Source: Halioglobus sp.
GTDB lineage: Bacteria > Pseudomonadota > Gammaproteobacteria > Pseudomonadales > Halieaceae
NCBI GenBank assembly: GCA_029246385.1
Contig: JAQWNG010000044.1
Location: forward strand, 6,270 to 70,269
Length of the DNA stretch: 64,000 bases
Reading direction: 5' to 3'
Under the pieces are notes generated by a model. It had not been told where the DNA came from, did not search any database, and was given only the letters and a program-made list of their open reading frames with translations. Positions within the stretch are counted from its first letter, which is position 1, and each line of letters starts with the position of its first letter. The translations under genes and the position numbers were made by a program. Positions 663-16,850 of the stretch are shown one piece after another.

Positions 663-2402
663 TTAATGGTCCATGGCTTTTTGAATTTGTTGCGAAAAGT
701 CTGTTTGTAGAATGTTTGGAACGTCCTCGGGATAGATCGGCCGAGCGAAATAAAAGCCTTGCAGTAGGTCGCACCCTTTGCCCACAAGATAAGCCAGCTG
801 ACTTTCATTCTCTATGCCCTCTGCAATCACTCGCAAATTAAGCGCTTTTGCAAGCCCGAGAATGGCGTCAACGATGGCTGCCCCATCGGATGTATTTAAG
901 TCATTAACAAAGCTATGATCGATTTTGAGTGTGTCTATCGGAAAGCGCTTAAGGTAACTCAGCGATGAATAGCCCGTACCGAAGTCATCAACTGCGAGGT
1001 CGATACCGAGAGATTTTAATGCGCGCAGCTTTGCAATATTGGTCTCAGCATCGTTCATGATGGCGCTTTCTGTCAGCTCAAGCTCTAGACGCTCGGGTGA
1101 CAAAGCAGATTTCGTCAAAAAGTCTGCTATCCAATCAGACAGATTCCCCTGATTAAACTGTAACGGAGAGATATTGACACACACACGGAATGCACGGAGG
1201 CCAAGAGTATCCCAGTACAGGCAATTCCTAGCGACTTCTTCCATTACCCATTCACCCAACTCGATTATTTGGCCCGTACTCTCAGCTATCGGAATGAACT
1301 CGTTCGGAGATACCATGCCGCGCTTAGGATGCTTCCAGCGGACTAGCGCCTCCATGCTTACTACCTCACCGGTTATGGAGTTGATCTGGGGTTGGTAGCG
1401 CAACTCTAGTTCTGAATTACGCAGCGCGTCGCGTAATTCTTCTTCCATTTTTAGTTTCTCTACCGCCTTGGCGTTCATCTCCTCATTATAAAATCGATAG
1501 CAAGCTCGACCTTCCGCCTTGGCAAAATACATAGCAGTATCGGCATTTCGAATCAAGATATCTGGGTCGTCACCATCTTGGGGGTACAGCGCAATTCCAA
1601 TGCTGGGTGTCACCACGGGGTTGTGCGACTGCAGGGGTATTGGCTGGGAGAGACATTCGAGGATGCGCTTGGCGACCTTTTCAATATCAGACATGTCATC
1701 CACATCTGATAAAACAACTGTGAATTCATCACCACCCAATCTAGAAATTTCAGCGGCACCGGACTCCTTATCTTGAGCAGCACTGTTTTCCGACAAATAA
1801 TTAACGGAGTCCTCTTCACGCAATTCCATCGTTAGTCTTCTGGCTATTTCCACCAGCAGGCTATCTCCGCGAGCGTGACCAATCGAATCATTAATACGCT
1901 TGAAGTGATCTAAATCGATAAAAAGCAGCGCTGCTACTGTCTGGCGCCGTTGACTGCGCTTAAGAAGCCGAGTCAATTGCTCATTAAAGCTTCTTCTGTT
2001 GGGAAGGCTGGTAAGGGGATCATAGTAAGCGAGGTGCCGGAGTCGATCTTCCTGCCGCTTGAGCGAATTAAATGCAGAGCTGGCACGAAGCATATATTGC
2101 ACATCGCGACCTAGTAATGACCAATTGACCGGCTTTGTTTTGTATTGGGTCGCCCCAGCGTCGAACCCTTTGTCTATGGACTCGCGATCTTCAGAGCCTG
2201 TCACAATCATAATAGGAATCGTTTTACCCTGTGGCAACTCTCGGATGCGCTGACACGCATCAAGGCCTGTCATCCCGGGCATCTCTACGTCCATGAATAC
2301 TAGATCAGGTCTTTCAGTCACAAAAATAGATATGGCCTCACGCCCGTTGGAGGCCTCTATAACGACCATGTCCTCTGCTTCGAGACACTGGCGTGTCAGC
2401 AA
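663..2402 (-). CDS. response-regulator receiver / GGDEF diguanylate cyclase / EAL phosphodiesterase
   Basis: 579-aa ORF. The receiver has DLVFMDVEMPGMTG (acceptor Asp) and KP. GGDEF is intact (RLGGDEF). EAL motifs are EALVRW, ELTES, DDFGTGYSSL, KIDHSF, EGIE and QGFYFARP. The annotated TTG start cuts off receiver strand beta-1; see the finding on 2403-2465. Confidence 0.85.
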   Translation of the reverse strand: MLTRQCLEAEDMVVIEASNGREAISIFVTERPDLVFMDVEMPGMTGLDACQRIRELPQGKTIPIMIVTGSEDRESIDKGFDAGATQYKTKPVNWSLLGRDVQYMLRASSAFNSLKRQEDRLRHLAYYDPLTSLPNRRSFNEQLTRLLKRSQRRQTVAALLFIDLDHFKRINDSIGHARGDSLLVEIARRLTMELREEDSVNYLSENSAAQDKESGAAEISRLGGDEFTVVLSDVDDMSDIEKVAKRILECLSQPIPLQSHNPVVTPSIGIALYPQDGDDPDILIRNADTAMYFAKAEGRACYRFYNEEMNAKAVEKLKMEEELRDALRNSELELRYQPQINSITGEVVSMEALVRWKHPKRGMVSPNEFIPIAESTGQIIELGEWVMEEVARNCLYWDTLGLRAFRVCVNISPLQFNQGNLSDWIADFLTKSALSPERLELELTESAIMNDAETNIAKLRALKSLGIDLAVDDFGTGYSSLSYLKRFPIDTLKIDHSFVNDLNTSDGAAIVDAILGLAKALNLRVIAEGIENESQLAYLVGKGCDLLQGFYFARPIYPEDVPNILQTDFSQQIQKAMDH

Positions 2403-2590
2403 CCGAACGTTCTGGTCATCATCAACAACAAGAATTTTGGCTTGATGGCTTATAGGATCTGTTCTCTATATTGACTGACGAAAGTAACCGTTATACTCAT
2501 CACGCTAGGCTATCACTAGTAAGGCCTTGCGACTAGCGAGAATGCTTACTAAGGAGCAGCCACCCGAAAAACCGCTCGCCGGCACCTAGC

Positions 2591-4297
2591 CTAAGACAAA
2601 AGCTGCTCACGACGCAGCACAGCATGTTCCTGCACAAAACGCGGCAGATTCTGCAAGGGAATTGCCGGACTGTAATAGAATCCTTGCACCTGATGACAAT
2701 GGTGATCACGCAAAAACTGAATTTGCTCATGCGTTTCTGCGCCTTCTGCCACAACGACTAAACCCAGTCGACGTCCTATCTCAATAATCATACAGCAGAC
2801 TGCTTGCTGGCTTTCATTGTGCGGTAGATCACGCACAAAACAAGCATCAATTTTCAATGCAGAAATCGGCAGCTCCGTGAGGTGATTAAGCTGAGAAAAA
2901 CCTGTGCCAAAATCGTCTAGTGAAAAAGAGATCCCAAGTTCTCGCAGTTTGTTCATGCGTGACTTAATTTCTAAAGAGCTTTGTAAAATCGTTGATTCCG
3001 TTAATTCGAACTCAATTTTCGCCCCATTCGCACCGCTGCGCACGATAATATCCTTAACGATTTCGACAAAAGCGTCGTCCTCGATCTGAGAAAATGAGAT
3101 GTTCACGGCAACATCCACATTTTTCATGCCTTGTTCCTCTAGCCAAATCTGAGCGTTGCACGCGTGTTGAATCACTTGATAGCCTATGGCCTTCATAAGC
3201 CCCATGTCCTCGCAGGCGGACATAAAATCGCCGGGCAAAAGGAGGCCGCGCTCCGGATGATTCCAGCGCAGTAAAGCCTCTAGCCCCACAAGATGACCAG
3301 ATCCAAGGTCTATTCTAGGCTGATAATGCAGCTCAAACTGATTCTTCCTCACAGCGGTGCGCAGCTCTGCTGTGAGCGACGTATTGCCCTCAACATCAAA
3401 GACAAGCTTCTCAGAGTATCTAACGAACCGACCACCCTCAATACTTTTTGCCTGCTGCATCGCGCGGCGCGCGTGTTCGACCAGATCTGAAAAATCGTCA
3501 CCGTCTTCCGGATAAATCGCCACACCGATACTCGCCTCAACAGCCACCTGCTGGTCACTCAGGAGCATCGGAAGGGAAATAGATTTAAGCATTTTTTCCG
3601 TAATAAGCTCCACATCGTCAGTCGAATTGACGTCTTCAAGCACGATGGCAAACTCATCGCCACCAAGCCGCGCTATACTGTCAGTACTGCGCATTTTATT
3701 GATCAAGCGTTGCGAAATAGATTTGATCATGACATCGCCATCAGATTCGCCATAGTGGTCGTTGATGTTGGTGAACTGGTCAATGTTGATGTAGAGCAAA
3801 GCTGTGTTGGAGCCATAGCGCTTGGAACGATCCATGGCGCGCTCTAAGTGAGCACGGAAACCCACCCGATTAAGCACCCCAGTGAGCGTATCACGATTGG
3901 ACAACTGTCCTATTTGATCCCGAGCCTGCTTGAGCTTGATATTGTAATCGAGAATACGGTGCACTAATGCATCCTGTAATTGACCGCGGGTGAGATAGTC
4001 TTGCGCCCCCAGTTCGCGCAAATGGGTGAAAGAAGCCTGTTCAGACTCATCAAGCATTACAAGAAGCGGGGCCGCGGCATTATTTTTGTTGGCCAGACGC
4101 AGCAGATACTCAGTTTGAGCTCCATGGCCAATAATTACGGCATCTATCATTGGGTCTAAGAGCGCTTCCAGTGGACGTTCCATGGTCTCTTGAGCCGCAA
4201 GCTGGAATCTCGCCGGTTGCGCACGCGACAGACACGCGGCCAAAATCAGGTGGTCAGCCTTGTTCTCGGATATGATCAGTACTGTGTGCTGTTCCAC
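2591..4297 (-). CDS. degenerate (pseudo-)receiver / GGDEF / EAL protein
   Basis: 568-aa ORF. The N-terminal CheY-like fold lacks the acidic pair (SEN instead of DD), and the acceptor position reads DAVIIG. GGDEF is intact and has an I-site (RSTD-SIARL-GGDEF). EAL motifs are EALLRW, ELTES, DDFGTGFSQL, KIDACF, EGAE and QGFYYSP. Confidence 0.85.
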   Translation of the reverse strand: MEQHTVLIISENKADHLILAACLSRAQPARFQLAAQETMERPLEALLDPMIDAVIIGHGAQTEYLLRLANKNNAAAPLLVMLDESEQASFTHLRELGAQDYLTRGQLQDALVHRILDYNIKLKQARDQIGQLSNRDTLTGVLNRVGFRAHLERAMDRSKRYGSNTALLYINIDQFTNINDHYGESDGDVMIKSISQRLINKMRSTDSIARLGGDEFAIVLEDVNSTDDVELITEKMLKSISLPMLLSDQQVAVEASIGVAIYPEDGDDFSDLVEHARRAMQQAKSIEGGRFVRYSEKLVFDVEGNTSLTAELRTAVRKNQFELHYQPRIDLGSGHLVGLEALLRWNHPERGLLLPGDFMSACEDMGLMKAIGYQVIQHACNAQIWLEEQGMKNVDVAVNISFSQIEDDAFVEIVKDIIVRSGANGAKIEFELTESTILQSSLEIKSRMNKLRELGISFSLDDFGTGFSQLNHLTELPISALKIDACFVRDLPHNESQQAVCCMIIEIGRRLGLVVVAEGAETHEQIQFLRDHHCHQVQGFYYSPAIPLQNLPRFVQEHAVLRREQLLS

Positions 4298-4334
4298 TGT
4301 GAATCCTTGACTGCTTGCGCACTGTACGCTAACT

Positions 4335-4389
4335 CTGAAAAGCGCCTATTTTAGTCGTTTTTGCGACAAACTAGTCAGCGCTTTTTCAG
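4335..4389. repeat. long imperfect inverted repeat / A-tract-GC stem-T-tract hairpin in a divergent intergenic region
   Basis: CTGAAAAGCGC (4335-4345) pairs with GCGCTTTTTCAG (4378-4389), with one extra T. An inner GTCG/CGAC stem sits inside the loop. Confidence 0.4.
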
Positions 4390-4600
4390 AATTTTATCTT
4401 ATAAATAACAGAAGGTTATACGGAATAATTGACTGAAACTCTAGTAAATGTTTATTGAAAATTACCAAATCGAGAGTACCCTCGGAATGTGTCCCAATTA
4501 ACGCACTCATGCGTCATCGCTACCTCAGCAATTACTCGCAATGACGCCACCCTGCACACGCCACTTTAGACACGAATTTGGGCTTATGCGTCAGAGGAAA

Positions 4601-4628
4601 TTAACGCCCGCCACTTTTGTGTTAGAAT
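4601..4628 (+). promoter_or_regulatory. candidate sigma70 promoter of nadA
   Basis: TTAACG (4601-4606), a 16-nt spacer, then TGtTAGAAT (extended -10; TAGAAT at 4623-4628). It lies 35 nt upstream of the nadA ATG. Pattern match only. Confidence 0.3.
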
Positions 4629-4662
4629 TACCGTTCGTGTTTTCCATTTCTAATAGTCGTCT

Positions 4663-5736
4663 ATGAGTCTTGCTTCCGAAAAACTGAGAACCATCCGGGA
4701 TCAGGTACAATCTCATCTCGATCGTGCAGAGCAAAAGCAGCTTAAGCCGGAACAGGAGCGGTCACTTAAGAACCAAATACGAACTCGCCTGCAGGAAGAA
4801 AATGCTGTCATTGTCGCGCATTATTATACGTCCCCAGTCATCCAAGCCCTGGCCGAAGAAACCGGTGGCTGCGTCTCCGACTCGCTCGAAATGGCGCGCT
4901 TTGGCCACGATCATCCCGCCACGACACTGGTGGTCGCTGGCGTCAAATTTATGGGCGAAACCGCCAAGATTCTTACACCCCAAAAACGCGTTCTGATGCC
5001 TACACTGGAAGCAACCTGCTCCTTGGACCTGGGTTGTCCAATCGATGAATTTTCTGCTTTCTGTGATCAGCACCGAGACCGCAAGGTTGTAGTCTATGCC
5101 AACACCTCAGCGGCGGTGAAGGCCAGAGCGGACTGGGTCGTCACTTCCAGCATAGCGCTTGACGTGGTAGAACATTTGACCGAACAGGGCGAAAAAATTC
5201 TGTGGGCGCCCGACCAATATTTAGGCGATTATGTGCAACGACAAACTGGCGCTGACATGCTCATGTGGGACGGCGCATGCATTGTGCATGAAGAGTTCAA
5301 GGCACGCGGTATCGCCGATTTGAAGCGCGTCTACCCCGATGCCGCGGTACTAGTCCACCCCGAATCGCCCGCTGCAGTGGTAAACCTAGCGGATCGCGTG
5401 GGTTCAACCACGCAAATTATTCGGGCCGCAAGTGAAATGGATAACAAACGCTTCATCGTAGCCACTGACCAAGGTATATTTTATAAGCTGCAGCAGCAGG
5501 CACCCGATAAAGAATTTATTATCGCACCCACAGCTGGTGCAGGCGCAACCTGCCGTAGCTGTGCTCAATGCCCATGGATGGCAATGAATGACTTGGAAAC
5601 GCTAGCGCAGGTATTCGAGATAGACGATAACGAGATAGACGTAGAGCCGGCTATCGGAGCGCAGGCCATGATCCCCTTGCGCCGTATGCTAGATTTTGCC
5701 AACGAACTTCAAATCACCGTCAAAGGCAACGCCTAA
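4663..5736 (+). CDS. nadA: quinolinate synthase A
   Basis: 357 aa, collinear with E. coli NadA: [62 protein letters not shown]. Confidence 0.95.
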
Positions 5737-5769
5737 AGCCTTGCTCTGTAGAAACATTACAGTGGGAAT

Positions 5770-7245
5770 TTAGAATGCCTCCATCCGCTCCTGCATTTTA
5801 GTGACATCCGCAAGACGTTGGTGGACTTTAGCCGAAACCAAATAGTTGTCCTGGCTCAATTTCAACGCGTAGGTAAGTTGTTCTTTAGCGTCGTCTAAGG
5901 ACCCTTTAAGAATAAAATACTCTGCCCGGGATTCATGCAACGCGATAATATTGCCGGATAAACCCTGTACCTCTGCCAGTAGATACCAGAGGCTAGGATC
6001 ATTAGGCCAGCGCTTGCTCTGCTTTACTAGTACTTCCGCGGCGATATGCGGCTGTTGATTTTTCATCAACGCTCGGGCGTAGCTCATGGTCAAGGGATGG
6101 TTACCTGGAGAGATCGCTAACCGGCGAGCCAATTTCTTCGCAGCCTGACCTGGCTGATTACGCGCCATATCAATACCCGCATCAGCAAGGATATATTCGA
6201 GACGATTCGGCTGTGTTGACCAAATGGCACTCAGCTCCAAACTAGCCTCATCCGCGCGCCCAGAAGCCGTCAGCGCAATCACCAGTCCGTAGGTCGCGGC
6301 CTCGCGCGAATAGGGTGTGCCGTCCAGTTCTCCCTGAAACCTTTCTACCGCTAGGTCGGGGGTTTCAGACAGCTCAGTGATAACGCGAGCCCGCATCAAT
6401 TGATAATCTAGATTTGGAACACGCGCTTTCGTCGGAAACTTTCTCGCACGGTTGCGTGTATCGGCAATACGGTTTTCGGACAAAGGATGAGACCGCAGAA
6501 ATTCGGGTATCTGCTCGCTGGTTGTGTATCGCGTTGCGCGCAACATACGCTCAAACATCGCGGGTGCGGCATGCGGATCCATACCCGCATCCACGATTGT
6601 TTGCATTCCAATGCGGTCAGCTTCCTGCTCATTACTTCGACTGTAACTCAGTGCCGAATCTTGCGCCGCCGCCTGCGTTGCGGATAAGGCTGCCAGACCC
6701 GCGTCTGTGCCCGTGGTTGCCATCAATACAAAACTTGCCAACATAGCAGCAAGATTCAAAGGCTGCATTTTTTGTTGGTACTCCACCCCACGCGAAAAGT
6801 GACGCTGGCTTAAGTGAGCTATTTCATGTGCCAACACCGTAGCAAATTCGTCTTGTGTTTGAGCCCAAAGCAGAAGCCCATTATGAATACCGATCACACC
6901 GCCGGGAACTGCAAAAGCATTCATTGTCGGATTGTCGACAATGACTAGATCTATGCGTCGATCTTCAAGTTTAGAGTGACTGGCCAGCTTATAGATGAGG
7001 TTTTCAACATAATCAAACAACAAGGGATCGTCTATGGTCGGGACTTGACCGCGAAAAGCGCGCAACCAGGCGCGGCCTAAGTGGTACTCAAATTCCGATG
7101 AAAATACGCTCGTGCTGGATTCACCGAGGTTCGGTAGTTTGAATTCCTGTGTGTTAGCGGCAGCGGTATTGGCCACAATAAAGGAGAATCCAATTGCGGA
7201 TATCAGGCGTCGCGCACGTGCTATAAATACTGATACATTAAACAC
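5770..7245 (-). CDS. bepA: M48-family periplasmic metalloprotease with C-terminal TPR region (BepA/YfgC-like)
   Basis: 491 aa with a signal peptide. It has the HEXXH motif HEIAHLSQRH, a downstream E (NEQEADRIG) and a TPR-like C-terminal half. GTG start. Confidence 0.85.
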   Translation of the reverse strand: MFNVSVFIARARRLISAIGFSFIVANTAAANTQEFKLPNLGESSTSVFSSEFEYHLGRAWLRAFRGQVPTIDDPLLFDYVENLIYKLASHSKLEDRRIDLVIVDNPTMNAFAVPGGVIGIHNGLLLWAQTQDEFATVLAHEIAHLSQRHFSRGVEYQQKMQPLNLAAMLASFVLMATTGTDAGLAALSATQAAAQDSALSYSRSNEQEADRIGMQTIVDAGMDPHAAPAMFERMLRATRYTTSEQIPEFLRSHPLSENRIADTRNRARKFPTKARVPNLDYQLMRARVITELSETPDLAVERFQGELDGTPYSREAATYGLVIALTASGRADEASLELSAIWSTQPNRLEYILADAGIDMARNQPGQAAKKLARRLAISPGNHPLTMSYARALMKNQQPHIAAEVLVKQSKRWPNDPSLWYLLAEVQGLSGNIIALHESRAEYFILKGSLDDAKEQLTYALKLSQDNYLVSAKVHQRLADVTKMQERMEAF

Positions 7246-7336
7246 AGTATGAAATCACTGATTTATTCAAGGGCATAGCCTAGTGTACTGCATTCACAAA
7301 AATTAGCTGCATGACAATGCCTGTCGCGCAGGCATT

Positions 7337-8599
7337 TTACGGCTGTGCAGACACAGAAGATTTGCCGCCTGCCCAAGGCGCCACCCAGATTAACAGCAGC
7401 ATCCCGGGAAACGCCAGAACGGTACACAGTAAGAAGAAGTCGACCCACCCAATGTTCTCAACAATGATACCTGTGCTCCCGTTGACAAACGTTCGCGGCA
7501 CTGCCGCGAGCGCCGTAAAAAGCGCAAATTGCGTTGCGGCGTAGGTCTTGCTCGTTTCGCGCGCGATAAAAGCGGTAAAGGCGGCGGTACCCATTCCAAC
7601 ACCGAGGTACTCAAAAGCAATCACTAATGCTAGCAGCCACAATTTTGGCTCCGAGCTGGCCAGCAGAGCAAATCCCAGAATACTGGCCATCTGCACCGCA
7701 CCAAACATCCATAGGGCGCGATTTATACCGATTCGCAACATAATCAGCCCACCCACTAAACCGCCAATAATCGATGGCCACAACGCCGCATTTTTCGCGA
7801 CTAAACCAATCTCCGTCTTAGTGAACCCCATCTCAAGGTAAAATGGCATGGTTAACGCTGTGGCCATGCTGTCGCCAAGCTTATAAAGGAACATAAAGCC
7901 CAGCACCAACAATACTCCTGACCAGCCTCTGCGTCCCAAGTACTCAAAAAAGGGCGCGGACAGCGCCTGCCGGAGTCCCATTGCCGCCGGCGGCATAGAC
8001 TTCGGCTCAGACACGACCAAGCTCATTATAATACCGACCGACATAAAGCCGGCGGTAATCCAGAAAACACTAGACCAAGGCAAGATGTCCGCTAGGATAA
8101 GCGATAGTGACCCCGGCACCAGACTGGAAATACGATAAGCCTGCACGTGGATAGAGCTGCCTAACCCTAGCTCATTATCCGACAGTATTTCGCGCCTGTA
8201 GGCGTCTAAAACTACATCCTGACTGGCGCTAAAAAAAGCAACCGCCAGCGCGAGGGCCGCGATCAACTTGGTAGACTGCTCTGGATTAAACATACCCATG
8301 ACGCCAATTGAAAGCAGCAAAAACACCTGGGTTACCAACATCCAGCCTCTACGTCTGCCCAAAAAAGGTGGAATGAAACGATCCAAGAAAGGTGCCCAAA
8401 GGAACTTAAGCGTGTAGGGCAAGCCAATCAGCGAGAATAATCCTATCTCGGTCAGAGATACGCCGCCGTCACTAAGCCAGGCAGGGACGAGCTGAAAGAG
8501 CACATAAAGCGGCATACCTGACGCAAGGCCGGTAAAAACACAGGCCAGCATACGACGGTTAAAAACGGCAGCGCGAAAACCAGCGATGGCAGCACTCAA
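7337..8599 (-). CDS. ampG: AmpG-family muropeptide MFS permease
   Basis: 420 aa, multi-TM. N-terminus FTGLASGMPLY..LVPAWL and LKFLWAPFLDR are typical of AmpG/PAT family. TTG start. Confidence 0.85.
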   Translation of the reverse strand: MSAAIAGFRAAVFNRRMLACVFTGLASGMPLYVLFQLVPAWLSDGGVSLTEIGLFSLIGLPYTLKFLWAPFLDRFIPPFLGRRRGWMLVTQVFLLLSIGVMGMFNPEQSTKLIAALALAVAFFSASQDVVLDAYRREILSDNELGLGSSIHVQAYRISSLVPGSLSLILADILPWSSVFWITAGFMSVGIIMSLVVSEPKSMPPAAMGLRQALSAPFFEYLGRRGWSGVLLVLGFMFLYKLGDSMATALTMPFYLEMGFTKTEIGLVAKNAALWPSIIGGLVGGLIMLRIGINRALWMFGAVQMASILGFALLASSEPKLWLLALVIAFEYLGVGMGTAAFTAFIARETSKTYAATQFALFTALAAVPRTFVNGSTGIIVENIGWVDFFLLCTVLAFPGMLLLIWVAPWAGGKSSVSAQP

Positions 8600-8688
8600 G
8601 GCGTTTTAATCTTCAAAGACACTATCGCAAGTCGACAGTAAAGAGCCATATCTATCAAGCATACCATTGCTAAAGCAGTACACCCTCA

Positions 8689-10125
8689 TTAGAGCTTCTT
8701 CAAAAGTGCGGCTGCAATCAAGCCGAGGTTACCCCACATCGACTGTGCATATACACCCGTTCGCCACAAATGCAGCAATCTGCGAGGGAATGGCTGATCT
8801 CTAGCCGCACGAAAGTCATCCAAAAGTCTCTGATTCTCTTCGGTTAAGTAAGACCGGCTTTGCTGCAGCGCTTCGATGTGTTGGGTATTCCATATCCGGT
8901 TACGCCCCTGCAGCGCCAACCAGAATCGCTTAAACCTAACGCTCCAGTTCCTCGATGAACCGACTAGGTTATTCTTATGCTGGCGATAGCTTATCGAAGG
9001 ACGCTCATCATAAATAACCAATCCCCCTGATCCCGCTACCAAAATATAGGTCCACCAATCATGCGTTACGATGTCGACTGGACCCACAGCAGAAAGGAGA
9101 TCTCTTGCCGCAAGATTCATCACCATAGTATTGCCGCCAGCGATATTTTGAATCAGTGCATTGGCGAAGCTAGGTTGCTTAGAAAACAAGGGCGACAAGC
9201 CAATATTACGCCCGTGTATGTCTATCAGCAGGGAACGCGAACAGTAGAGTGCGGGGCGATCATCCGGAAGAGAGGATAACGCCTCGACAGCGCGAGACAA
9301 TTTATTTGTAGCCCAGATATCATCTTGATCAGCGTAGGCGAAATAATCTCCTTCAATTTTTGAGAAAATTAATGAAAAAAAGTTTTCTGCATGACCACGC
9401 CTGGGTCCCTGACCTACTGATAGTAGATCCTCACCCCAACGGTCACGAAACGTCTGAAGTATGTTCTGTGTTTCATCCTGTGAACCATCGTCAGAGACAT
9501 AAATCGATACTCGCACATCTGCTTGCTCGGCGATGGATTCCAACTGCTGTGCTAAAAATTTTCCACCGTTGTAACAGCACAGCAGCACCGCGACTGTAGG
9601 GACGGTGTCAGAACTTAACGCCATTGAACCTTGCAGAGGCTTGCTACAATCGTCCTCGCTCTGACCACTAAAGCTTCCATTTATCGACTCGCCCTGCTCC
9701 TCGTCAATTTTCACATGATTTTGCAGAGCCTTGATGATATTGCTCTGAACACCAAGCGCCATGAATACGGCTCTGTCCAGCGCTCTGGCAAGCGCTTCAA
9801 CTAAACCATGGCCTTGGGGTACGTTTGCAGGAAATGTGATGCCCGCATCAGTCATCCCCATCGGCGCGACATTGTTACTTAATAAAAAGTTATGCGAAAC
9901 ATTTGCCAAATATATGGATTCTGGCGGAAGATCTGTACCGCTCAATAAAGGAATGTTTAACTGCTTGCTTAGCGCAGCAGCAACATCTTGGTCCGAAACC
10001 AGCCCCAGCTTTACTAGGACTTGGCCTAGTAAGTGGCCCAATTCTGACTTCGCAAGCAGGGCTTTCTCTGCATCACTCTCGGAGAGCTTGCCTTGCTCTA
10101 ATAGCAATTCCCCCAGTTTTTTCAT
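8689..10125 (-). CDS. MshEN/T2SSE_N-type (c-di-GMP-binding) domain fused to a family-2 glycosyltransferase (rhamnosyltransferase-like)
   Basis: The ORF track gives 8689-10188. I prefer the internal ATG at 10125 (MKKLGELLLEQG...). The N-terminus carries two 24-residue MshEN-like motifs separated by 5 residues. The C-terminal half has GT2 motifs VAVLLCCYNGGKFL, YVSDDGSQDET, YADQDDIW and HDWWTY. Confidence 0.8.
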   Translation of the reverse strand: MKKLGELLLEQGKLSESDAEKALLAKSELGHLLGQVLVKLGLVSDQDVAAALSKQLNIPLLSGTDLPPESIYLANVSHNFLLSNNVAPMGMTDAGITFPANVPQGHGLVEALARALDRAVFMALGVQSNIIKALQNHVKIDEEQGESINGSFSGQSEDDCSKPLQGSMALSSDTVPTVAVLLCCYNGGKFLAQQLESIAEQADVRVSIYVSDDGSQDETQNILQTFRDRWGEDLLSVGQGPRRGHAENFFSLIFSKIEGDYFAYADQDDIWATNKLSRAVEALSSLPDDRPALYCSRSLLIDIHGRNIGLSPLFSKQPSFANALIQNIAGGNTMVMNLAARDLLSAVGPVDIVTHDWWTYILVAGSGGLVIYDERPSISYRQHKNNLVGSSRNWSVRFKRFWLALQGRNRIWNTQHIEALQQSRSYLTEENQRLLDDFRAARDQPFPRRLLHLWRTGVYAQSMWGNLGLIAAALLKKL

Positions 10126-10252
10126 AAACCATTCGATCTCACGCAAATGTGTGGAGAAGGTTAGCGCTGGTAACAGCGAAACACGCACGATTGACTCGAA
10201 TTCAGTGTAACATAACTCTAATCGGCGTATGCGCTAGGAAATCTAAACATAA

Positions 10253-10270
10253 CCGAGCAAGCGTGTTCGG
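10253..10270 (-). terminator. weak candidate terminator after the last gene of the long minus-strand operon
   Basis: On the minus strand, CCGAAC-ACGCUU-GCUCGG (one mismatch) is followed by UUAUGUUUAGAUUU. It begins 12 nt downstream of the thiolase stop. Confidence 0.3.
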
Positions 10271-10281
10271 CGCAGATCGAA

Positions 10282-11484
10282 TTAGGCAACTTCGAAAAGC
10301 CCAGCAGCCCCCATGCCGCCGCCAATACACATTGTGACCACGACGTATCCTGCACCCCGACGCTTACCTTCAAGTAACGCATGGCCCACCATCCGCGCCC
10401 CACTCATACCAAACGGATGACCAATAGAAATAGAACCTCCGCTGACATTAAGCTTGGCATTATCGATACCTAACTGGTCGCGGCAATAGATCACCTGGCA
10501 CGCAAATGCCTCATTCAGTTCCCAAAGATCGATGTCGTTAACCGTTAGACCATGACGCTGCAGAAGTTTAGGGACTGCAAACACCGGTCCAATGCCCATC
10601 TCGTCAGATTTGCAACCCGCGACAGCGAGACCGCGGTAGACGCCCAAGGGTGAGAGTCCCCTCTTGGACGCCAACGTTGCATCCATCAACACACAAGCAG
10701 AAGCACCGTCAGAGAGCTGCGAAGAATTCCCAGCCGTAATAAACCGTCCTTCTTTTATCCGCTGGCCATCCTTAAACACAGGCTCCAAGGCAGCAAGACT
10801 TTCCAGCGTGGTGGCGGGACGATTACAATCATCTCGATCTACCACTGTCTCCTGATAGCTAGTCTCTCTCGTTTCTTTATTGAACATAGCCATTGTGGTG
10901 GTCATTGACACGATTTCAGCGTCAAACAGGCCTGCGTTCTGTGCAGCAGCCGTGCGCTGTTGGCTTTGTAAAGAGTATATGTCCTGAGCTTCACGACTAA
11001 TGTTGTAACGTTTAGACACCACTTCAGCGGTCTCTAACATTGGCATATAAGCCGCAGCATCGACGACGTTAACTGCCTGTGACACATTGCGGTAAGCATT
11101 CTTATGCTTAGTCTGCACCAGTGATATAGACTCCACTCCACCGGCCACCGCGATATCATATTCGTTGCACATAATACTCTTGGCGGCAGACGCAATCGAC
11201 ATCAGGCCAGAGGAACACTGGCGCTCAATCGCCATGCCGGCGACAGAGTCAGGCAGGCCGCCGGCGATACCGCTGAGACGTCCTATATTATAGCTCTGTG
11301 TGCCCTGCTGTGCCGCGGCGCCAAAAATACAATCGTCGACCTCTGACGGATCAACCCCAGCTCGCTCAACCGCCGCGCGCACGACATGGCCGCCCATAGC
11401 AGGCGCTTCTGTGTCGTTAAATCCGCCACGAAATGATTTCGCCAAACCGGTTCTTGCTGTAGACACTATGACCGCTTCTCTCAT
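10282..11484 (-). CDS. acetyl-CoA C-acyltransferase (thiolase)
   Basis: 400 aa. Thiolase N-terminus MREAVIVSTARTGLAKSFRGGF, active-site Cys region RQCSSGL, C-terminal NVSGGSISIGHPFGMSG and CIGGGMG. Confidence 0.9.
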   Translation of the reverse strand: MREAVIVSTARTGLAKSFRGGFNDTEAPAMGGHVVRAAVERAGVDPSEVDDCIFGAAAQQGTQSYNIGRLSGIAGGLPDSVAGMAIERQCSSGLMSIASAAKSIMCNEYDIAVAGGVESISLVQTKHKNAYRNVSQAVNVVDAAAYMPMLETAEVVSKRYNISREAQDIYSLQSQQRTAAAQNAGLFDAEIVSMTTTMAMFNKETRETSYQETVVDRDDCNRPATTLESLAALEPVFKDGQRIKEGRFITAGNSSQLSDGASACVLMDATLASKRGLSPLGVYRGLAVAGCKSDEMGIGPVFAVPKLLQRHGLTVNDIDLWELNEAFACQVIYCRDQLGIDNAKLNVSGGSISIGHPFGMSGARMVGHALLEGKRRGAGYVVVTMCIGGGMGAAGLFEVA

Positions 11485-11542
11485 ATCACCTCTCTTAATT
11501 CTTTATAACTACTTCATCTAAATTTTTTTAACAATGCACCAA

Positions 11543-12334
11543 TTAACTGCGTTGACTTGAAACCGGTACTATCTCGCCCGTCATATAGCTCGAATAATCC
11601 GACGACAAAAACATCATGACATTGGCGACTTCCCAAGCCTCCGCGGCACGCCCGTAGGCTTCTTTAGCCTCTAGCTCAGCCAATAATTCTTCCGAGGCAG
11701 ACTTGCGCAACATGGGGTGCAACACAATGGACGGCGCAACAGCATTGATACGCACATTAAAGTCAGCAGCCTCCAATGCAGCGCAACGCGTCAATGCCAT
11801 CACTCCTGCCTTAGCAGCGGCATAGTGCGCCTGTTCTTTTTGTGCACGCCAGCCCAGCACAGACGCATTATTGACAATGACGCCGCCTTGCCCGCGCGCC
11901 TTCATGACCTTCATCATATAGCGCGTCATACGCATAGTGCCGTTAAGTGTTACATCGATGACTCGATTCCACTCATCATCTTCCATTTCCATTAGCAATT
12001 TTGAGCTACCGAGGCCTGCATTGTTAATCAGAATATCGACGCCGCCCATATTCTCTTCAGCGAAATCCACCAGCGAACGCACATCGTCTTCGACCACCAC
12101 ATTGCCTATTTTACCGTAGACTTCAGCAAGACCGGATTCTTGTTTCAGCTTGCCAACCGCTATCGACAATCGACCCTCATGAATATCACTGAGCACAATG
12201 GCGCGGGCGCCCTCTTCTGCAGCCTTGATGGCAGCAGAAAAACCGATTCCGGCGCCGGCTGCCGCGGTTATCAATACGGACTTGCCTTTGATGAGATCGT
12301 GACCGGGCACATATTTGGGCGATTTCAAATTCAT
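11543..12334 (-). CDS. short-chain dehydrogenase/reductase (SDR)
   Basis: The track ORF extends to 12460, overlapping the upstream gene. ATG at 12334 is preceded by AAAGGA, giving 263 aa. Motifs: TAAAGAGIG Rossmann, NNAG, YAAAK catalytic. Confidence 0.85.
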   Translation of the reverse strand: MNLKSPKYVPGHDLIKGKSVLITAAAGAGIGFSAAIKAAEEGARAIVLSDIHEGRLSIAVGKLKQESGLAEVYGKIGNVVVEDDVRSLVDFAEENMGGVDILINNAGLGSSKLLMEMEDDEWNRVIDVTLNGTMRMTRYMMKVMKARGQGGVIVNNASVLGWRAQKEQAHYAAAKAGVMALTRCAALEAADFNVRINAVAPSIVLHPMLRKSASEELLAELEAKEAYGRAAEAWEVANVMMFLSSDYSSYMTGEIVPVSSQRS

Positions 12335-12353
12335 AATGAGTCCTTTAAACCGT

Positions 12354-13556
12354 TCACTTGGCCACACCTTTGGGTTCTTTGGGCATACCCAGACCCCGCT
12401 CGGCAATGATATTACGTTGGATCTGGTTAGTGCCGCCGTAGATAGTGTCAGCGCGGACAAACAAATACATAGATTGTAAACGACTTAAGCTGTACGGCGC
12501 GTCCTCGAGGATTTCGCACTCAGGACCCAATACATCCATTGCCAGCTCACCCAGACTGCGGTGCCAGGTAGACCAAAATAATTTGTAGATAAGGGCTTCC
12601 TTTTGGAGTCCCCCATCGCTACCGCTTTGGCCAGACAAGATACGCATAGAGTTATAACGCATAATTTTTAGCTCTGAATGCGCCCGTGCAAGGCGCTGAC
12701 GAATCGCCGGATCCTTTGCGGCGCCATTATTTTTGGCGACACGAATAACCTCATCTAATTCATTTTGAAATTGCATTTGCTGACCAAGCGTTGACACACC
12801 TCGCTCGAAACCCAGCAGCCCCATTGCCACCTTCCATCCTTCGCCTGGCGCACCGACAATGTCGTCTGCATCACACTGCGCCTCATCAAAAAACACCTCA
12901 TTAAATTCAGAGGTGCCCGTGATCTGCTCGATAGGTCGGACTTCAACCCCGGGCTGGTCCATCTTTATCAGGAAAAATCCCAAGCCTTTGTGTGCTACAG
13001 AATCAAGGTCGGTGCGAGCGATCACAAAACAATAGTTAGACTCATGAGCTAGTGAGGTCCAGACCTTTTGCCCGTTAATAATCCATTTGTTTTGCGCTTC
13101 ATCAAAACGCGCCTTCGTCTTGACGTTGGCCAAATCTGATCCCGCGCTAGGCTCAGAGTAACCCTGACACCACAGTTCAGTACCCGCAACGATACCGGGC
13201 AGATATTTTTTTTTCTGTTCATCGGTACCGAAGGCAATAAGCGTAGGGCCAGCCAGCCCCTCGCCAATATGCCCGACGCGCCCCGGCGCTCCCGCCCGCG
13301 CGTATTCCTCAAAAAAGATCACCTGCTGCTCAATCGAACAGCCACGGCCACCATATTCCTTTGACCAGCCAACGCAGGTCCAACCACCCTCTGCGAGCTT
13401 TTGCTCCCACACTTTGCGTTGCTCGGGGAATGTATGCTCGTCACCGGGCCCACCGCGAAAGCGCAACTTTTCAAATTCGCCGGTCAGATTGACCTGCAAC
13501 CAATTGGCAATCTCCTGTCGAAATTGCTCGTCTTCGGCACTAAAACTTAATTTCAC
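12354..13556 (-). CDS. acyl-CoA dehydrogenase, alpha-type (large) subunit of an adjacent-gene pair
   Basis: 400 aa ACAD fold. The C-terminal motif is IYGGTNQIQRNIIAERGLGMP. Its start overlaps the stop of the upstream ACAD gene by 4 nt. Confidence 0.85.
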   Translation of the reverse strand: MKLSFSAEDEQFRQEIANWLQVNLTGEFEKLRFRGGPGDEHTFPEQRKVWEQKLAEGGWTCVGWSKEYGGRGCSIEQQVIFFEEYARAGAPGRVGHIGEGLAGPTLIAFGTDEQKKKYLPGIVAGTELWCQGYSEPSAGSDLANVKTKARFDEAQNKWIINGQKVWTSLAHESNYCFVIARTDLDSVAHKGLGFFLIKMDQPGVEVRPIEQITGTSEFNEVFFDEAQCDADDIVGAPGEGWKVAMGLLGFERGVSTLGQQMQFQNELDEVIRVAKNNGAAKDPAIRQRLARAHSELKIMRYNSMRILSGQSGSDGGLQKEALIYKLFWSTWHRSLGELAMDVLGPECEILEDAPYSLSRLQSMYLFVRADTIYGGTNQIQRNIIAERGLGMPKEPKGVAK

Positions 13557-14725
13557 GAATCTCCTCCTTCATCCAGCAGCATACAAGCCAAGCGCTCACG
13601 ATGAAAAACACCGTTGCCTAGCAAATGCTCGGAAGATTTTGCACGTTTTAAATACAGGTGGACGTCGTATTCCCAGGTAAAACCCACACCTCCAAACAAC
13701 TGCAGTGCGTCACCGGCAACGGCAAAGTAGGCATCGGAGCAATAGGACTTTGCGACACTGGCCGCCTCACTCAGCTCCGCCGAAAGTGGACCACCCTCCA
13801 GTGCCTCTTGAGCTACGCAGGCGGCATAATAAATCGCGGAACGCGCAACTTCGACTTTCAGCATCATATCGGCGGCTTTATGCTTTACCGCCTGATAACT
13901 CGCAATGGTGCGGTTAAACTGCACTCGCTCGCTGGTATATGCCACCGTCATATCGAGTAGCTGCTGGCAGCCGCCGACCTGCTCCGCAGCCAGTGCAATC
14001 GAGGCGAGGTCAATCACCGTGGACAGCGATTTCCAAGCCTGTCCCGGCTCGCCCATTACAGCATCCGCCGGGAGGCTCACGTTTTTCAGTTGCACAGCGG
14101 CCTGCTTACGCGCCTGATCCATCGTTGGCAACCACTGTCGACTGACGCCGTCGGTGGTTGCCGGCAGCAAAAAGAGGCTAACACCCTCTGCTCCCGTTGC
14201 ACCCTCGGCCCGAGCCGCCACGATCAGAAGGTCAGCAGTATGCCCATCAATGACATAGCGGTAATCACCATTTAACAGATACCCGTCACCCTCACGCCGC
14301 CAGGTCGCGGTAATCGATTCTGCGTCCCAGCGACTTGAACCGCCGTTGAATGCCAATGTTGCAGTCACCGTACCCTGGCACAGTTGCGCTAGCCAGTGCG
14401 CCTGTTGCGATTCACTGCCTGCCACCCGCAACGCATTGCCTGCCAGACAAACGGTGGACAAAAAGGGCGCGCACAGGAGTGAGCGGCCCATCTGCTCCAT
14501 CATGGCAACCAACTCGACATAACCTAGACCCATGCCACCATAGGCTTCCGGCACATGAATTGCCTGCCAGTACATTTCACTGCAGATACGATTCCACAGT
14601 TCAGGCTCATAGCCCTGCTCCGTGTCCATAGCACGACGTACCGCCGCACTATCAGACACCTCAGCGAGAAAGGCGGCCGTTGTATCACGAATCATTTCCT
14701 GTTCTTCTGTAAATGCGAATTCCAT
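13553..14725 (-). CDS. acyl-CoA dehydrogenase family protein, beta-type subunit
   Basis: 390 aa ACAD fold. It lacks the Y-x-G-T-x-x-x-Q motif and instead has QLFGGVGFTWEYDVHLYLKRA near the C-terminus. Confidence 0.8.
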   Translation of the reverse strand: MEFAFTEEQEMIRDTTAAFLAEVSDSAAVRRAMDTEQGYEPELWNRICSEMYWQAIHVPEAYGGMGLGYVELVAMMEQMGRSLLCAPFLSTVCLAGNALRVAGSESQQAHWLAQLCQGTVTATLAFNGGSSRWDAESITATWRREGDGYLLNGDYRYVIDGHTADLLIVAARAEGATGAEGVSLFLLPATTDGVSRQWLPTMDQARKQAAVQLKNVSLPADAVMGEPGQAWKSLSTVIDLASIALAAEQVGGCQQLLDMTVAYTSERVQFNRTIASYQAVKHKAADMMLKVEVARSAIYYAACVAQEALEGGPLSAELSEAASVAKSYCSDAYFAVAGDALQLFGGVGFTWEYDVHLYLKRAKSSEHLLGNGVFHRERLACMLLDEGGDS

Positions 14726-14749
14726 AACTTCTCCGATCAGCGCCTGACT

Positions 14750-15643
14750 TTAGGTGCCCCAGACTTTCTGAGCCGGCACTTCCTCTGCCAACAATTTTTT
14801 CATCGCCACTCCCATTTCGGCTGGCGCCCACGCCGCGCCGCGATCGACGCCGGCTGTCGTGCGCCAACCGTCGCAAATGCAAATGCGACCACCTTCAGAC
14901 TCGAATACTCGCCCAGTCACCGCAGCAGCTTCCGCACTGCCGAGCCACGCCAACAGGTTCGAGACGTTCTCAGGGGCGAAGTGGTCAAAGCTGCCATCCT
15001 CCGGCTTCGCCATGCGTTCAGCCATTTCTGGCACCGCACTGGTCATACCCGTGCGAGCCGAAGGAGCGACTGCATTGGCAGTGATGTTGTATCGACCAAG
15101 CTCTGCGGCTTGATTCAGTGTCAACGCAGCAATACCCGCTTTGGCCGCAGCGTAGTTTGATTGCCCGATGGAGCCCTGCAAGCCGGCACCCGAGGTCGTA
15201 TTGATAATACGTGCATCCACCGGCTGACCTTCCTTTGATCGCCCGCGCCAATAGTGGACGGCGTGAGAGCTGATGCAAAAATGACCTTTAAGGTGCACCG
15301 CCATAATAGTGTCCCACTCTTGCTCGGTCATAGAGGCAAACATACGGTCGCGATTAACGCCGGCGTTGTTTAACACGATATGTAAATCACCGTAGCTGTC
15401 GATGGCCTGCTTAATGGCATTGAGGCTGTCGTCGTAATGCGTGATGTCACTACTGTTAACCACAGCTTTGCCGCCGGCAGCAGTGATCTCGTTCACCACC
15501 GCCTGAGCTGCCTCTGTATTAATATCGTTTACCACAACAGCGCAGCCTTCAGCTGCGAATACTCGTGCGTGTGCCGCGCCCAAGCCACCACCGGCACCGG
15601 TAATGATGGCGACCCGCCCTTGTAGAATTCCACTCATCGTCAA
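14750..15643 (-). CDS. SDR-family oxidoreductase (hydroxyacyl-CoA dehydrogenase-like)
   Basis: 297 aa. Motifs: ITGAGGGLG, NNAG, YAAAKAG. It resembles the dehydrogenase domain of MFE-2/Hsd4A-type and Rv3548c-type enzymes (family level only). Confidence 0.8.
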   Translation of the reverse strand: MTMSGILQGRVAIITGAGGGLGAAHARVFAAEGCAVVVNDINTEAAQAVVNEITAAGGKAVVNSSDITHYDDSLNAIKQAIDSYGDLHIVLNNAGVNRDRMFASMTEQEWDTIMAVHLKGHFCISSHAVHYWRGRSKEGQPVDARIINTTSGAGLQGSIGQSNYAAAKAGIAALTLNQAAELGRYNITANAVAPSARTGMTSAVPEMAERMAKPEDGSFDHFAPENVSNLLAWLGSAEAAAVTGRVFESEGGRICICDGWRTTAGVDRGAAWAPAEMGVAMKKLLAEEVPAQKVWGT

Positions 15644-15701
15644 TATCCTCTCGTTAGGTCCTGTTGCATCGCGTTATAACGTCGCCTCTAGCGGCATCGC
15701 C

Positions 15702-16850
15702 CTATAGACGTTCCAAAATAGTCACGTTAGCCTGACCTCCACCCTCGCACATAGTCTGCAGACCGTACTTACCACCCGTGCGCTCTAACTCATGCAGCAG
15801 TGTCGTCATCAGCTTAGTGCCAGAGGCCCCTAGCGGATGTCCCAGTGCGATCGCACCACCGTTCACATTAGTCTTCTCAATGGGATAACCTGTCTCGATC
15901 AGCCATGCCATCGGCACCGACGCGAACGCCTCATTAATTTCGATATGGTCAATGTCTGATAGTTTTATACCAGATTTTTTAAGCGCATATTCCGTTGCTG
16001 GAATTGGCGCGGTGAGCATCCAAATAGGATCGGCCGCGCGGACGCTCATGTGCACGATGCGCGCACGCGGGGTCAAGTTATAGCGCTTCAGTGCCGCCTC
16101 TGACACCACCAGCAACGCCGAAGATCCGTCACAGGTCTGACTCGACACCGCTGCGGTAATCGTGCCGCCTTCCATCAACGGTTCCAATTCAGCCATTTTT
16201 TCCATCGAGGTATTGCGTGGCGTCTCATCCATAACAACACCATTGAGGGGTACAATCTCGCGATCGAAGCGCCCTTGCTCAATCGCAGCAAGCGCCAGCG
16301 TGTGCGAGCGTAGTGCAAATTCTTCCATCTGCTCGCGTGAAATTTTCCACTTGTCTGCAATCATTTGTGCAGACACAAACTGCGACGGTGGCGTACTACC
16401 GTAACGCGCAACCCAACCTTGGCTCCCTGAAAACGGATCACTGAACCCCATAGGCTGTGCCGCGATCATCGCGGAGGAGATTGGAATCTGCGTCATAGTC
16501 TGAACTCCACCGGCGACGACCACATCATTAACACCAGCAATAATAGCCTGCGCAGCAAAGTGCACGGCCTGTTGCGAAGAGCCACACTGGCGATCAATGG
16601 TCGTGCCCGGCACTGCATCAGACAGACCCGCAGCAAGCCACGCAGTGCGCGCAATATCGCCAGCGAGGGGTCCAATCGTATCGACGCAGCCAAACATCAC
16701 GTCATCGTACTCAGCATCGGGAATGCCGTTACGCTCGACTAACGCTTTCAACACATGAGCCCCGAGATCCGCACCGTGAACATCACTAAGGCCTCCTTTG
16801 CGGCGACCTGTCGGTGAGCGTACTGCGTCAACTATGTATGCGTCTGTCAT
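15702..16850 (-). CDS. thiolase (FadA6-like by context)
   Basis: 382 aa. Motifs: MTDAYIVDAVRSPTGRRKGG, RQCGSSQQA, NGGAIALGHPLGASG, CEGGGQA. Confidence 0.85.
   Translation of the reverse strand: MTDAYIVDAVRSPTGRRKGGLSDVHGADLGAHVLKALVERNGIPDAEYDDVMFGCVDTIGPLAGDIARTAWLAAGLSDAVPGTTIDRQCGSSQQAVHFAAQAIIAGVNDVVVAGGVQTMTQIPISSAMIAAQPMGFSDPFSGSQGWVARYGSTPPSQFVSAQMIADKWKISREQMEEFALRSHTLALAAIEQGRFDREIVPLNGVVMDETPRNTSMEKMAELEPLMEGGTITAAVSSQTCDGSSALLVVSEAALKRYNLTPRARIVHMSVRAADPIWMLTAPIPATEYALKKSGIKLSDIDHIEINEAFASVPMAWLIETGYPIEKTNVNGGAIALGHPLGASGTKLMTTLLHELERTGGKYGLQTMCEGGGQANVTILERL

Follow-up and report, generated by a model that had tools for sequence, protein, structure and literature searches.

A predicted MshEN-glycosyltransferase chimera derived from gspE in Halieaceae and its possible control by c-di-GMP

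The Alg44 and PelD systems are processive membrane synthases controlled by cyclic dimeric guanosine monophosphate (c-di-GMP). To our knowledge, all c-di-GMP-controlled glycosyltransferases (GTs) characterised so far are processive and embedded in the membrane. BcsA, NfrB, BgsA and PgaCD are systems of this kind (PMC8669469, PMC8669472). The BcsA-PilZ cellulose synthase combines a c-di-GMP receptor with a family-2 GT (GT2) and gates polysaccharide synthesis (cited in PMC8669472). In E. coli NfrB, shown in 2021 to be a c-di-GMP-activated GT (PMC8669469), an MshEN receptor and the GT2 are located in one polypeptide (PMC8669469, PMC8669472). Here we analyse a 64,000-nucleotide stretch of a Halioglobus sp. 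contig (JAQWNG010000044.1), referred to as the window, in which a minus-strand gene at 8689..10125 specifies a protein with an N-terminal MshEN head and a C-terminal GT2 domain. Re-translation matched exactly both the translation quoted in a first-pass annotation of this DNA and the location, 9961..10119, that it had assigned to a tandem c-di-GMP-binding motif.

Both orders of these domains, 'MshEN - Glyco_trans_2_3' and 'Glyco_trans_2_3 - MshEN', were catalogued in 2016 (PMC5013675, Suppl. Table 4) and NfrB was characterised in 2021 (PMC8669469), so the combination is less novel than the first-pass annotation had implied. R. sphaeroides Rsph17029_0522, with the same order as the window protein (MshEN and then GT2), is known from its entry in that catalogue and is uncharacterised (PMC5013675). 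NfrB is a processive membrane synthase (DxD, TED, QxxRW and transmembrane helices) with a C-terminal MshEN domain and the partners NfrA and YbcH, whereas the window protein has its MshEN domain at the N-terminus, followed by a small non-processive GT-A enzyme without QxxRW or transmembrane segments. Its match to the NfrB model PRK11234 (31.5 bits versus a cutoff of 1170) is local and lies on the MshEN part only. BcsA-PilZ is unlike the window protein in the fold of its receptor, PilZ, and in being a processive membrane synthase. Besides an orthologue of the window protein (P0005), the only one among the 150 nearest MshEN representatives to share its GT2 subfamily, P0209 and P0228 (about 1320 amino acids) are the sole MshEN-then-GT2 proteins in that set, and both are of the synthase type, with QxxRW and transmembrane-like segments. 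The same two features were present in all five GT2-containing proteins found among the 76 longest of these representatives. A characterised protein with an N-terminal MshEN domain and a non-processive GT2 was not found in the literature searched. Since the window protein fails the features of NfrB and BcsA and has those of an MshEN domain and a GT2, it appears to represent a distinct form. The MshEN-GT2 architecture is already known, and what appears to be new is the sensor on a soluble, decorating-type GT. The gene and its parts are the following.

8689..10125, minus strand: chimeric gene for a 478-amino acid product, with a predicted GspE-derived MshEN head, a linker and a GT2 domain (open reading frame (ORF) translation and domain searches)
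10048..10119, minus strand: MshEN motif I, residues 3-26, KLGELLLEQGKLSESDAEKALLAK (translation, NF053729, motif scoring)
10033..10047, minus strand: spacer SELGH, five residues, 27-31 (translation)
9961..10032, minus strand: MshEN motif II, residues 32-55, LLGQVLVKLGLVSDQDVAAALSKQ (translation, NF053729, motif scoring)
9706..9960, minus strand: MshEN_C / T2SSE_N1 alpha-beta subdomain, residues 56-140 (Pfam, model, Foldseek)
9601..9705, minus strand: acidic, poorly conserved linker, residues 141-175, with the gspE/GT2 junction (predicted local distance difference test (pLDDT) below 50)
8692..9600, minus strand: GT-A family-2 glycosyltransferase domain of the non-processive type, residues 176-478 (PF00535, model, Foldseek)
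9481..9492, minus strand: DDGS, residues 212-215, GT-A nucleotide-binding acidic motif (invariant in 14 homologues)
9319..9330, minus strand: DQDD, residues 266-269, DxD metal/donor-binding motif (D266, Q267, D268 and D269 invariant in 14 homologues)

The two motifs of the head are separated by five residues, the same spacing as in V. cholerae MshE (VcMshE; PMC5013675). The 11 constrained positions of each copy were compared with the strict motif of Wang 2016 and with the relaxed one that the same paper used for database searches. Copy 1 fits the strict motif at 7 of the 11 positions (misses: K at 1, K at 11, A at 17 and K at 24) and copy 2 at 9 (misses: L at 1 and V at 17), while the relaxed motif is fitted at 10 of 11 positions by either copy. 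The first-pass annotation had described two 24-residue segments five residues apart and listed their deviations; this description stands, except that the V in place of L at position 17 of copy 2 was overlooked. In six-frame translations of the whole window the tandem site scores best, with 16/22 strict and 20/22 relaxed positions versus 13 and 17 for the next unrelated site, and the match is well beyond chance. Under the extended consensus of 2024, which starts with (R/K/L)LG, the deviations left are K at I-11, A at I-17, K at I-24 and V at II-17.

Profile searches and structure prediction extend the similarity to the entire head. The NCBIfam model NF053729 ('c-di-GMP_motif') covers residues 3-55 over its full length (model positions 1-53/53; 45.8 bits, cutoff 38), and the Pfam family MshEN (PF05157) matches residues 56-139 at 23.2 bits, barely over the gathering threshold of 23.1; in P0005 the same family scores 39.6 bits. 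A phmmer search of the Protein Data Bank (PDB) with residues 1-150 found Thermus thermophilus PilF (6F8L, E 6e-19), VcMshE (5HTL, 5.6e-8) and XpsE (2e-7). The AlphaFold model of the same residues (pLDDT 77; 71-87 for residues 56-140) predicts helices at 4-10, 16-29, 33-39 and 45-56, followed by an alpha/beta unit at 60-149. Its best Foldseek match in the PDB is MshE with c-di-GMP (5HTL; template modelling (TM) scores 0.72/0.77), and it also resembles the c-di-GMP-bound PilF GSPII-B domain (8PDK/9GL5; about 0.69/0.75); the matches to 5HTL, 8PDK and XpsE (2D28) extend over about 135-145 columns. The profile matches and the model both show a complete MshEN domain at the N-terminus, composed of a predicted four-helix MshEN_N and an alpha/beta MshEN_C. 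The T2SSE_N-like N-terminus proposed by the first-pass annotation is borne out by the profile searches as well as by the likeness of the model to ligand-bound MshE and PilF GSPII-B, and the two Pfam families that it had named, PF05157 and Glycos_transf_2, were each found above threshold (residues 56-139 and 180-288). VcMshE (5HTL) and PilF GSPII-B (8PDK) share with the window protein the two-subdomain fold (TM scores 0.69-0.77) and the 24+5+24 motif. The heads of MshE and PilF control pilus ATPases, whereas that of the window protein is joined to a glycosyltransferase and has A at I-17 and K at I-24.

At the C-terminus, residues 180-288 match Glycos_transf_2 (PF00535) with 56.2 bits (threshold 23.3; E 5e-15), and the domain is modelled with pLDDT above 90. 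According to Foldseek the modelled domain resembles WrtF, the Leptospira GT 6P61, SpsA, TarS and TarP, which are non-processive GT2 enzymes. The processivity signature QxxRW is absent, as there is no Q..RW anywhere in the window protein, and no transmembrane segment was found (maximum 19-residue Kyte-Doolittle average 1.33 versus a criterion of 1.6). These properties suggest a soluble or peripheral non-processive GT-A enzyme on a flexible acidic linker. PF00535, the DxD motif and the GT-A fold model uphold the GT2 assignment made before; of the label 'rhamnosyltransferase-like', the GT2 identity stands and the rhamnosyl part is circumstantial, deriving from rmlABCD near GT-only relatives in 31/80 loci. 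No NCBIfam equivalog was reached by the window protein. The GT domain has more than 4,000 homologues, nearly all of them headless and 300-350 amino acids long. At 80 genomic loci of GT-only relatives, rmlA/B/C/D adjoin the gene in 31 and Wzm/Wzt in 17, and genes for O-antigen ligase, GT4 and other GT2 proteins recur nearby. These GT-only relatives therefore belong to glycan clusters of the lipopolysaccharide (LPS) or O-antigen type. Annotation of the window from 1 to 42 kb turned up no rml genes. The GT-only orthologues (P0008-P0022, 74-77% identity; L001, L007, L016) have the same invariant DDGS, DQDD, HDWW and YRQH motifs as the window protein and share its C-terminal amphipathic tail LIAAALLKKL. 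They differ in lacking the MshEN head, in beginning with MHAIQPAAPVMLDS and in lying inside glycan clusters, whereas the fused gene stands alone beside ampG.

Full-length fusions are rare: a search of 5.8 billion proteins gave six clusters at 90% identity, and one of 1.84 billion gave a single representative at 50% identity. Database searches found the fusion confined to the Halieaceae, and its full-length orthologues, at 65-86% identity, come only from Haliea and Halioglobus metagenome-assembled genomes (MAGs) and from marine metagenomes. Fusions with enough flanking sequence have beta-oxidation genes on one side and ampG on the other; the order in the window is beta-oxidation cluster, MshEN::GT2 fusion and ampG. 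In L085 (ENA ERZ21849166 contig_3111) the same beta-oxidation genes, with 67-86% identity to those of the window, precede gspE, as they precede the fusion in L005 and L086. Where the window has the fusion, L085 has an MshEN head (66% identity to that of the window over MshEN_N) that runs through frameshifts into T2SSE, and then come T2SSF, T2SSG, pseudopilins, GspL, GspM and GspC. Locus L016 (Halioglobus sp. 5NakV-09, 166-15872) carries GspL-M-C-D, two unknown genes, PpiC, a GT-only gene, a giant protein of 1,211 amino acids (sulfotransferase/GT2/GT4), a sulfotransferase and an AmpG that is 75% identical to that of the window. L085 and L016 overlap in GspL-M-C (41-49% identity) and were joined through this overlap, which gives the gene order proposed for this locus in an ancestor of some Halieaceae: beta-oxidation, gspE-F-G-H-I-J-K-L-M-C-D, x, x, ppiC, GT2, giant sulfotransferase/GT2/GT4, sulfotransferase and ampG.

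At the junction, gspE reads ...FIEHLKDLASEAPV followed by IRLVNQL...ASDIHIEP (that is, ...DLASEAPV and then IRLVN), the GT-only gene starts with MHAIQPAAPV followed by MLDSPDSLPEVAVLLC (MHAIQPAAPV and then MLDSPD), and the fused genes read ...IEHLKDLASEAPV followed by MLG(S/C)P...VAVLLC (...DLASEAPV and then MLGCPD). The nucleotides GCN CCN GTA AT are shared at the crossover. A deletion at this short microhomology would have joined gspE codon ~165, just beyond the MshEN domain and the '...HLKDLASEAPV' linker, to GT2 codon ~10. It would have removed the secretion operon and also both sulfotransferase-containing genes, one of them with GT2 and GT4 domains. The orthologues retain the GspE hallmark SGQSEDDSIEHLKDLASEAPV and continue with the MLGS..VAVLLC of the GT-only protein, and the window copy has since lost six residues in the linker at the junction. 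The nearest relatives of the N-domain, P0135, P0124 and P0122 (52-54% identity), are GspE-type proteins with the same linker and EAPVIRMVNQL..ASDIHI, and the c-di-GMP motif model is passed as well by more remote relatives of the head, which are ATPases of the GspE/PilB type. These GspE relatives surfaced in an exhaustive representative search, a word-indexed search with the N-domain having given only 14 same-family fragments. The Xps-type GspE of Halieaceae (L085; P0135, P0124, P0122) shares the head, the SGQSDD.FIEHLKDLASEAPV linker and the left-flank synteny with the window protein; it continues into N2E and ATPase domains (IRLVNQL...ASDIHIEP), whereas the window protein continues into GT2, and a Pfam search of the latter found no T2SSE ATPase domain (PF00437, Walker motifs). 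On sequence grounds, then, the gene is an evolutionary chimera whose N-terminal ~165 residues are a GspE head that lacks the ATPase domain.

The first-pass annotation had raised the concern that the R-to-K/L changes at the first motif positions abolish binding. Comparison with PilF removes it: GSPII-B, with K167 at motif I position 1 and L196 at motif II position 1, binds c-di-GMP with a dissociation constant of 6 nM, and the changes K167R and L196R lower the affinity 25-fold and 4-fold, respectively (PMC11731258). Because a domain with K and L binds and restoration of arginine weakens the affinity, the MshEN consensus was widened to (R/K/L)LG... (PMC11731258). K3 and L32 of the window protein are the same replacements. 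Of the remaining deviations in copy 1, the K at position 11 is shared with motif I of PilF GSPII-C, RLGEVLVQEGKLS, and the K at position 24 is permitted by Wang's relaxed motif (PMC5013675). The consensus of the family, taken over 29 distinct N-termini, is MKKLGELL(V/I)EQGK(L/I)SERDVER(T/A)LLAQ-5-(L)FGQVLVKLGLVSEQDVAxALSxQ. Motif positions are less variable than others (mean entropy 0.55 versus 0.79), and the invariant residues of the head are G5, L8, G34, G41 and L42 of the ligand site. Binding of c-di-GMP by the window copy is likely on these sequence features. A single c-di-GMP would be bound across both motifs of the MshEN_N bundle in a PilF-like, arginine-free mode. The outer faces of the two guanines would be stacked by K3 and L32, with L4, L23, L33 and L52, plus A19 and V48, as the inner hydrophobic platforms, and contacts to the bases and the ribose-phosphate would come from the G5 and G34 backbone amides and from the K26 and Q55 side chains. 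In PilF the ligand reorients MshEN_C relative to MshEN_N (PMC11731258). A similar reorientation may alter the activity, the oligomeric state or the association with membrane or partners of the tethered GT, which would then add one sugar to a lipid-linked surface glycan of the LPS, O-antigen or exopolysaccharide (EPS) type in step with cellular c-di-GMP. Gating of the glycosyltransferase by c-di-GMP is an extrapolation from these related systems, and activation, as the direction of control, is assumed by analogy with NfrB.

To estimate selection after the fusion, ratios of nonsynonymous to synonymous substitution rates (dN/dS) were calculated pairwise among four fused genes, so that every comparison postdates the fusion. 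The values were 0.12-0.34 for MshEN_N, 0.16-0.57 for MshEN_C, 0.34-0.68 for the linker and 0.09-0.13 for the GT; as far as substitution patterns tell, both halves are under purifying selection. Together, the dN/dS values, the entropy and the invariant ligand-site residues argue for a retained function of the head.

We consider it slightly better than an even chance that the gene is a chimera born of a gspE/GT2 deletion whose MshEN head binds c-di-GMP and controls the tethered GT. The product is probably, by its domains, a surface-sugar enzyme under direct second-messenger control. Our further proposal, that this is the first case of c-di-GMP directly gating a non-processive soluble Leloir-type GT and so editing the composition of a surface glycan, is made by analogy; we hold it tentatively and put it below even. 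With a sensor on a small GT of the decorating type, direct control by a second messenger would reach as far as glycan editing, the messenger changing the composition of a glycan instead of switching a membrane synthase on and off. The locus would also be an unusually clean case of the re-use of a signalling module, in which related marine genomes still show both the ancestral and the derived state as well as the junction. The birth of the receptor-enzyme pair could then be followed at the level of single bases: one deletion at a microhomology would have ended the type II secretion system (T2SS) and re-wired its sensor, and the lineage would have exchanged a secretion system for a new gene, since kept by purifying selection.

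Several observations weigh against this chimeric sensor-enzyme. The window copy departs from its own family at two ligand-contacting positions, V19->A and Q26->K, and both residues are peculiar to its sub-lineage. A19 occupies a corner of the guanine-stacking hydrophobic triangle, and K26 takes the place of the Gln that contacts the ribose-phosphate. In VcMshE the equivalent of A19, L25A, reduced the affinity more than 10-fold, although the ligand still stabilised the mutant (PMC5013675). Other fused members are degenerate elsewhere (Q at II-21 in P0002; P at II-6 and T/K at the Q positions in P0006), and these differing positions could reflect decay of the binding site after loss of the ATPase. 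The PF05157 margin of the window copy is only 0.1 bit. The head evolves faster than the GT, and in the pair formed by the window and L005 the dN/dS of MshEN_N (0.34) and MshEN_C (0.57) is looser than in other pairs, so the head may be partially decayed in some lineages, that of the window included. Across loci the fused protein is 65-86% identical, versus 92-94% for AmpG and 88-95% for the beta-oxidation enzymes. The full-length AlphaFold model is uninformative on the interdomain geometry, with pLDDT below 50 for residues 57-170. The context adds that the fused gene lies outside any glycan cluster in the annotated part of the window, and that adjacency to GGDEF-EAL genes is kept in the closest relative, L005, only and not in L004 or L086. 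With regard to the reconstructed origin, L085 is an error-rich contig in which almost all genes were called as 2-4 separate fragments, its upstream region cannot be aligned with the fused loci, and in a neighbour-joining tree the fused proteins are paraphyletic to a GT-only sister clade and not cleanly monophyletic. Because L085 is fragmented in this way and its gspE was read across frameshifts, its identities to the window are underestimated.

Some of these points are what would be expected if the head were no more than a scar of the deletion, supplying a start codon, translation signals and a harmless soluble extension to a constitutive, unregulated GT, with c-di-GMP binding lost or without effect. 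The fusion was born of an accidental deletion and not of selection for a sensor, the GT-only relatives function headless, constraint on the N-domain is weaker than on the GT by a factor of two to five, and ligand-contact substitutions occur in several members, the window copy among them. However, MshEN_N, at dS up to 0.86, has dN/dS values far from neutral and the adjacent linker reaches 0.34-0.68; the residues that stayed invariant are precisely G5, L8, G34, G41 and L42 of the ligand site; the end-to-end match to NF053729 is still over its cutoff; and the fusion has survived about 35% protein divergence across at least six 90%-identity clusters. We regard an inert head as unlikely, though as a serious contender.

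A function of the head as a docking module, bringing the GT to a platform at the membrane or to a partner of the PilZ/FimX kind, with any c-di-GMP control being indirect, seems quite improbable. MshEN_C (N1E) is normally the GspL-binding part of type II secretion ATPases and the head derives from such a GspE; Foldseek also matched the X. citri PilB N-domain-PilZ complex (7LKO, TM score 0.72) and the XpsE N-domain (2D28, 0.71), and GT-only relatives lie beside T2SS genes in Halieaceae and, in Rhodoferax, beside a GspE-F-G set. The cognate gspL, however, would have been lost in the same deletion, the 64-kb window yielded no MshEN partner gene or further MshEN match, and MshEN_C is the less constrained subdomain, the best-conserved residues lying in the nucleotide-binding motifs of MshEN_N. 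An assembly chimera or a decaying pseudogene, which the origin of the window in a marine metagenome and the frameshifts in L085 and L086 might suggest, is very improbable, as independently assembled sequences (window, L004, L005, L006 and the P0005 contig) all contain the fusion as one unbroken ORF next to the same genes, the GT has a dN/dS of 0.09-0.13 and its catalytic motifs are all invariant.

Divergence much faster than that of the immediate neighbours, as in the fused protein, is the pattern expected of a surface-glycan gene or of a recently re-purposed one.

The genes around the fusion to which the text refers, and one upstream element, are listed next.

7337..8599, minus strand: ampG-family muropeptide transporter of the major facilitator superfamily (MFS), downstream neighbour (TIGR00901, 480 bits, cutoff 350)
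10204..10212, minus strand: TGYTACACT box, extended -10-like, about 80 nucleotides 5' of the ATG (conserved in four fused loci)
10282..11484, minus strand: thiolase, last gene of beta-oxidation type, left flank of the deletion site (Pfam)
2591..4297, minus strand: GGDEF-EAL protein with intact GGDEF, RxxD I-site, EALxR and DDFGTG (domain and motif search)
663..2402, minus strand: REC-GGDEF-EAL protein with intact GGDEF, EALxR and DDFGTG (domain and motif search)

The window is syntenic with L005, a Haliea sp. MAG, at 85-95% protein identity, which places it in a marine gammaproteobacterium of the Halieaceae. In the window, L004, L005, L006, L086 and the P0005 contig alike, the next gene after the fusion is that for AmpG, and no terminator-like site was found in the 90-bp gap between the two genes in the window. 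Functional coupling to this MFS gene was considered and downgraded, since the transporter is of the AmpG family, is 92-94% conserved and simply forms the right flank of the deletion. Farther downstream are a BepA-like M48/TPR peptidase and nadA. The two GGDEF-EAL genes that the first-pass annotation had reported nearby lie 4.4 and 6.3 kb from the fusion and have intact catalytic motifs. An EPS or LPS operon as the context of the fusion was rejected: the neighbours are ampG, the M48 peptidase, nadA and beta-oxidation genes, and the region from 25 to 42 kb consists of housekeeping genes.

Upstream there is a 15-kb cluster of beta-oxidation type (10282-25190, minus strand). It contains two thiolases, two short-chain dehydrogenases/reductases (SDRs), four acyl-CoA dehydrogenases, an enoyl-CoA hydratase, a nitronate monooxygenase-like protein, a two-subunit CoA-transferase, two AsnC/Lrp regulators and an acyl-CoA ligase. 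The cluster is conserved in L005, L085 and L086, and it has the look of a pathway dedicated to beta-oxidation of the side-chain or steroid type. No orthologue of the thiolase at 10282..11484 is present in L085, in which the gene next to gspE is an SDR. Within the housekeeping region, an ORF of 493 amino acids (30855-32336, plus strand) is flanked by a gene for an enoyl-CoA reductase on one side and by those for pyruvate dehydrogenase E2/E1 on the other; no Pfam family matched it at E<=1e-5.

The start codon of the fusion is probably the ATG at 10125, and MKKLG or MTKLG is kept in all orthologues. An N-terminal extension from the GTG at 10188 is unlikely: the codon is GTC in L005, the upstream substitutions are not codon-like, and comparison of the fused loci revealed no codon-like conservation 5' of the ATG. 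The intergenic region 10126-10290 is about 84% conserved among the four fused loci, with TGYTACACT invariant. A sigma-70 scan of the coding strand 5' of the fusion called no promoter, the TGYTACACT box included. That the fusion inherited the gspE promoter could not be shown, as the upstream region of L085 cannot be aligned with the fused loci. A search for transcripts found the fusion sequence in metagenomic DNA runs only.

Other loci pair the same GT family with secretion genes. The Halieaceae that keep the T2SS (L001 481-12413, L007, L016) have GspL-M-C-D followed by two proteins without family hits, PpiC and the GT-only GT2, and these loci end with a sulfotransferase/GT2/GT4 protein of 1141-1211 amino acids, a 650-amino acid sulfotransferase and, last, ampG; this stretch is a candidate sulfated-glycan locus. 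Locus L015 of a Rhodoferax sp. MAG was recovered by tblastn with residues 2-478 as a possible second independent fusion and was rejected, as it holds a GT-only gene and then a separate GspE-like gene. In its segment 7926-12435 the GT-only member lies 136 bp 5' of a GspE-like ATPase with an intact MshEN motif, and GspF and GspG-like genes follow; it is thus the second lineage to show this GT family beside a secretion ATPase.

Fragments of the head at contig ends, such as P0129 and P0123, carry the names 'type II secretion system protein GspE, partial' or 'general secretion pathway protein E'. As fragments of this type may derive from the fusion or from a true gspE, such names can falsely suggest a T2SS, and 'GspE' entries of this kind should be read with the warning that their genomes possibly do not have this secretion operon.

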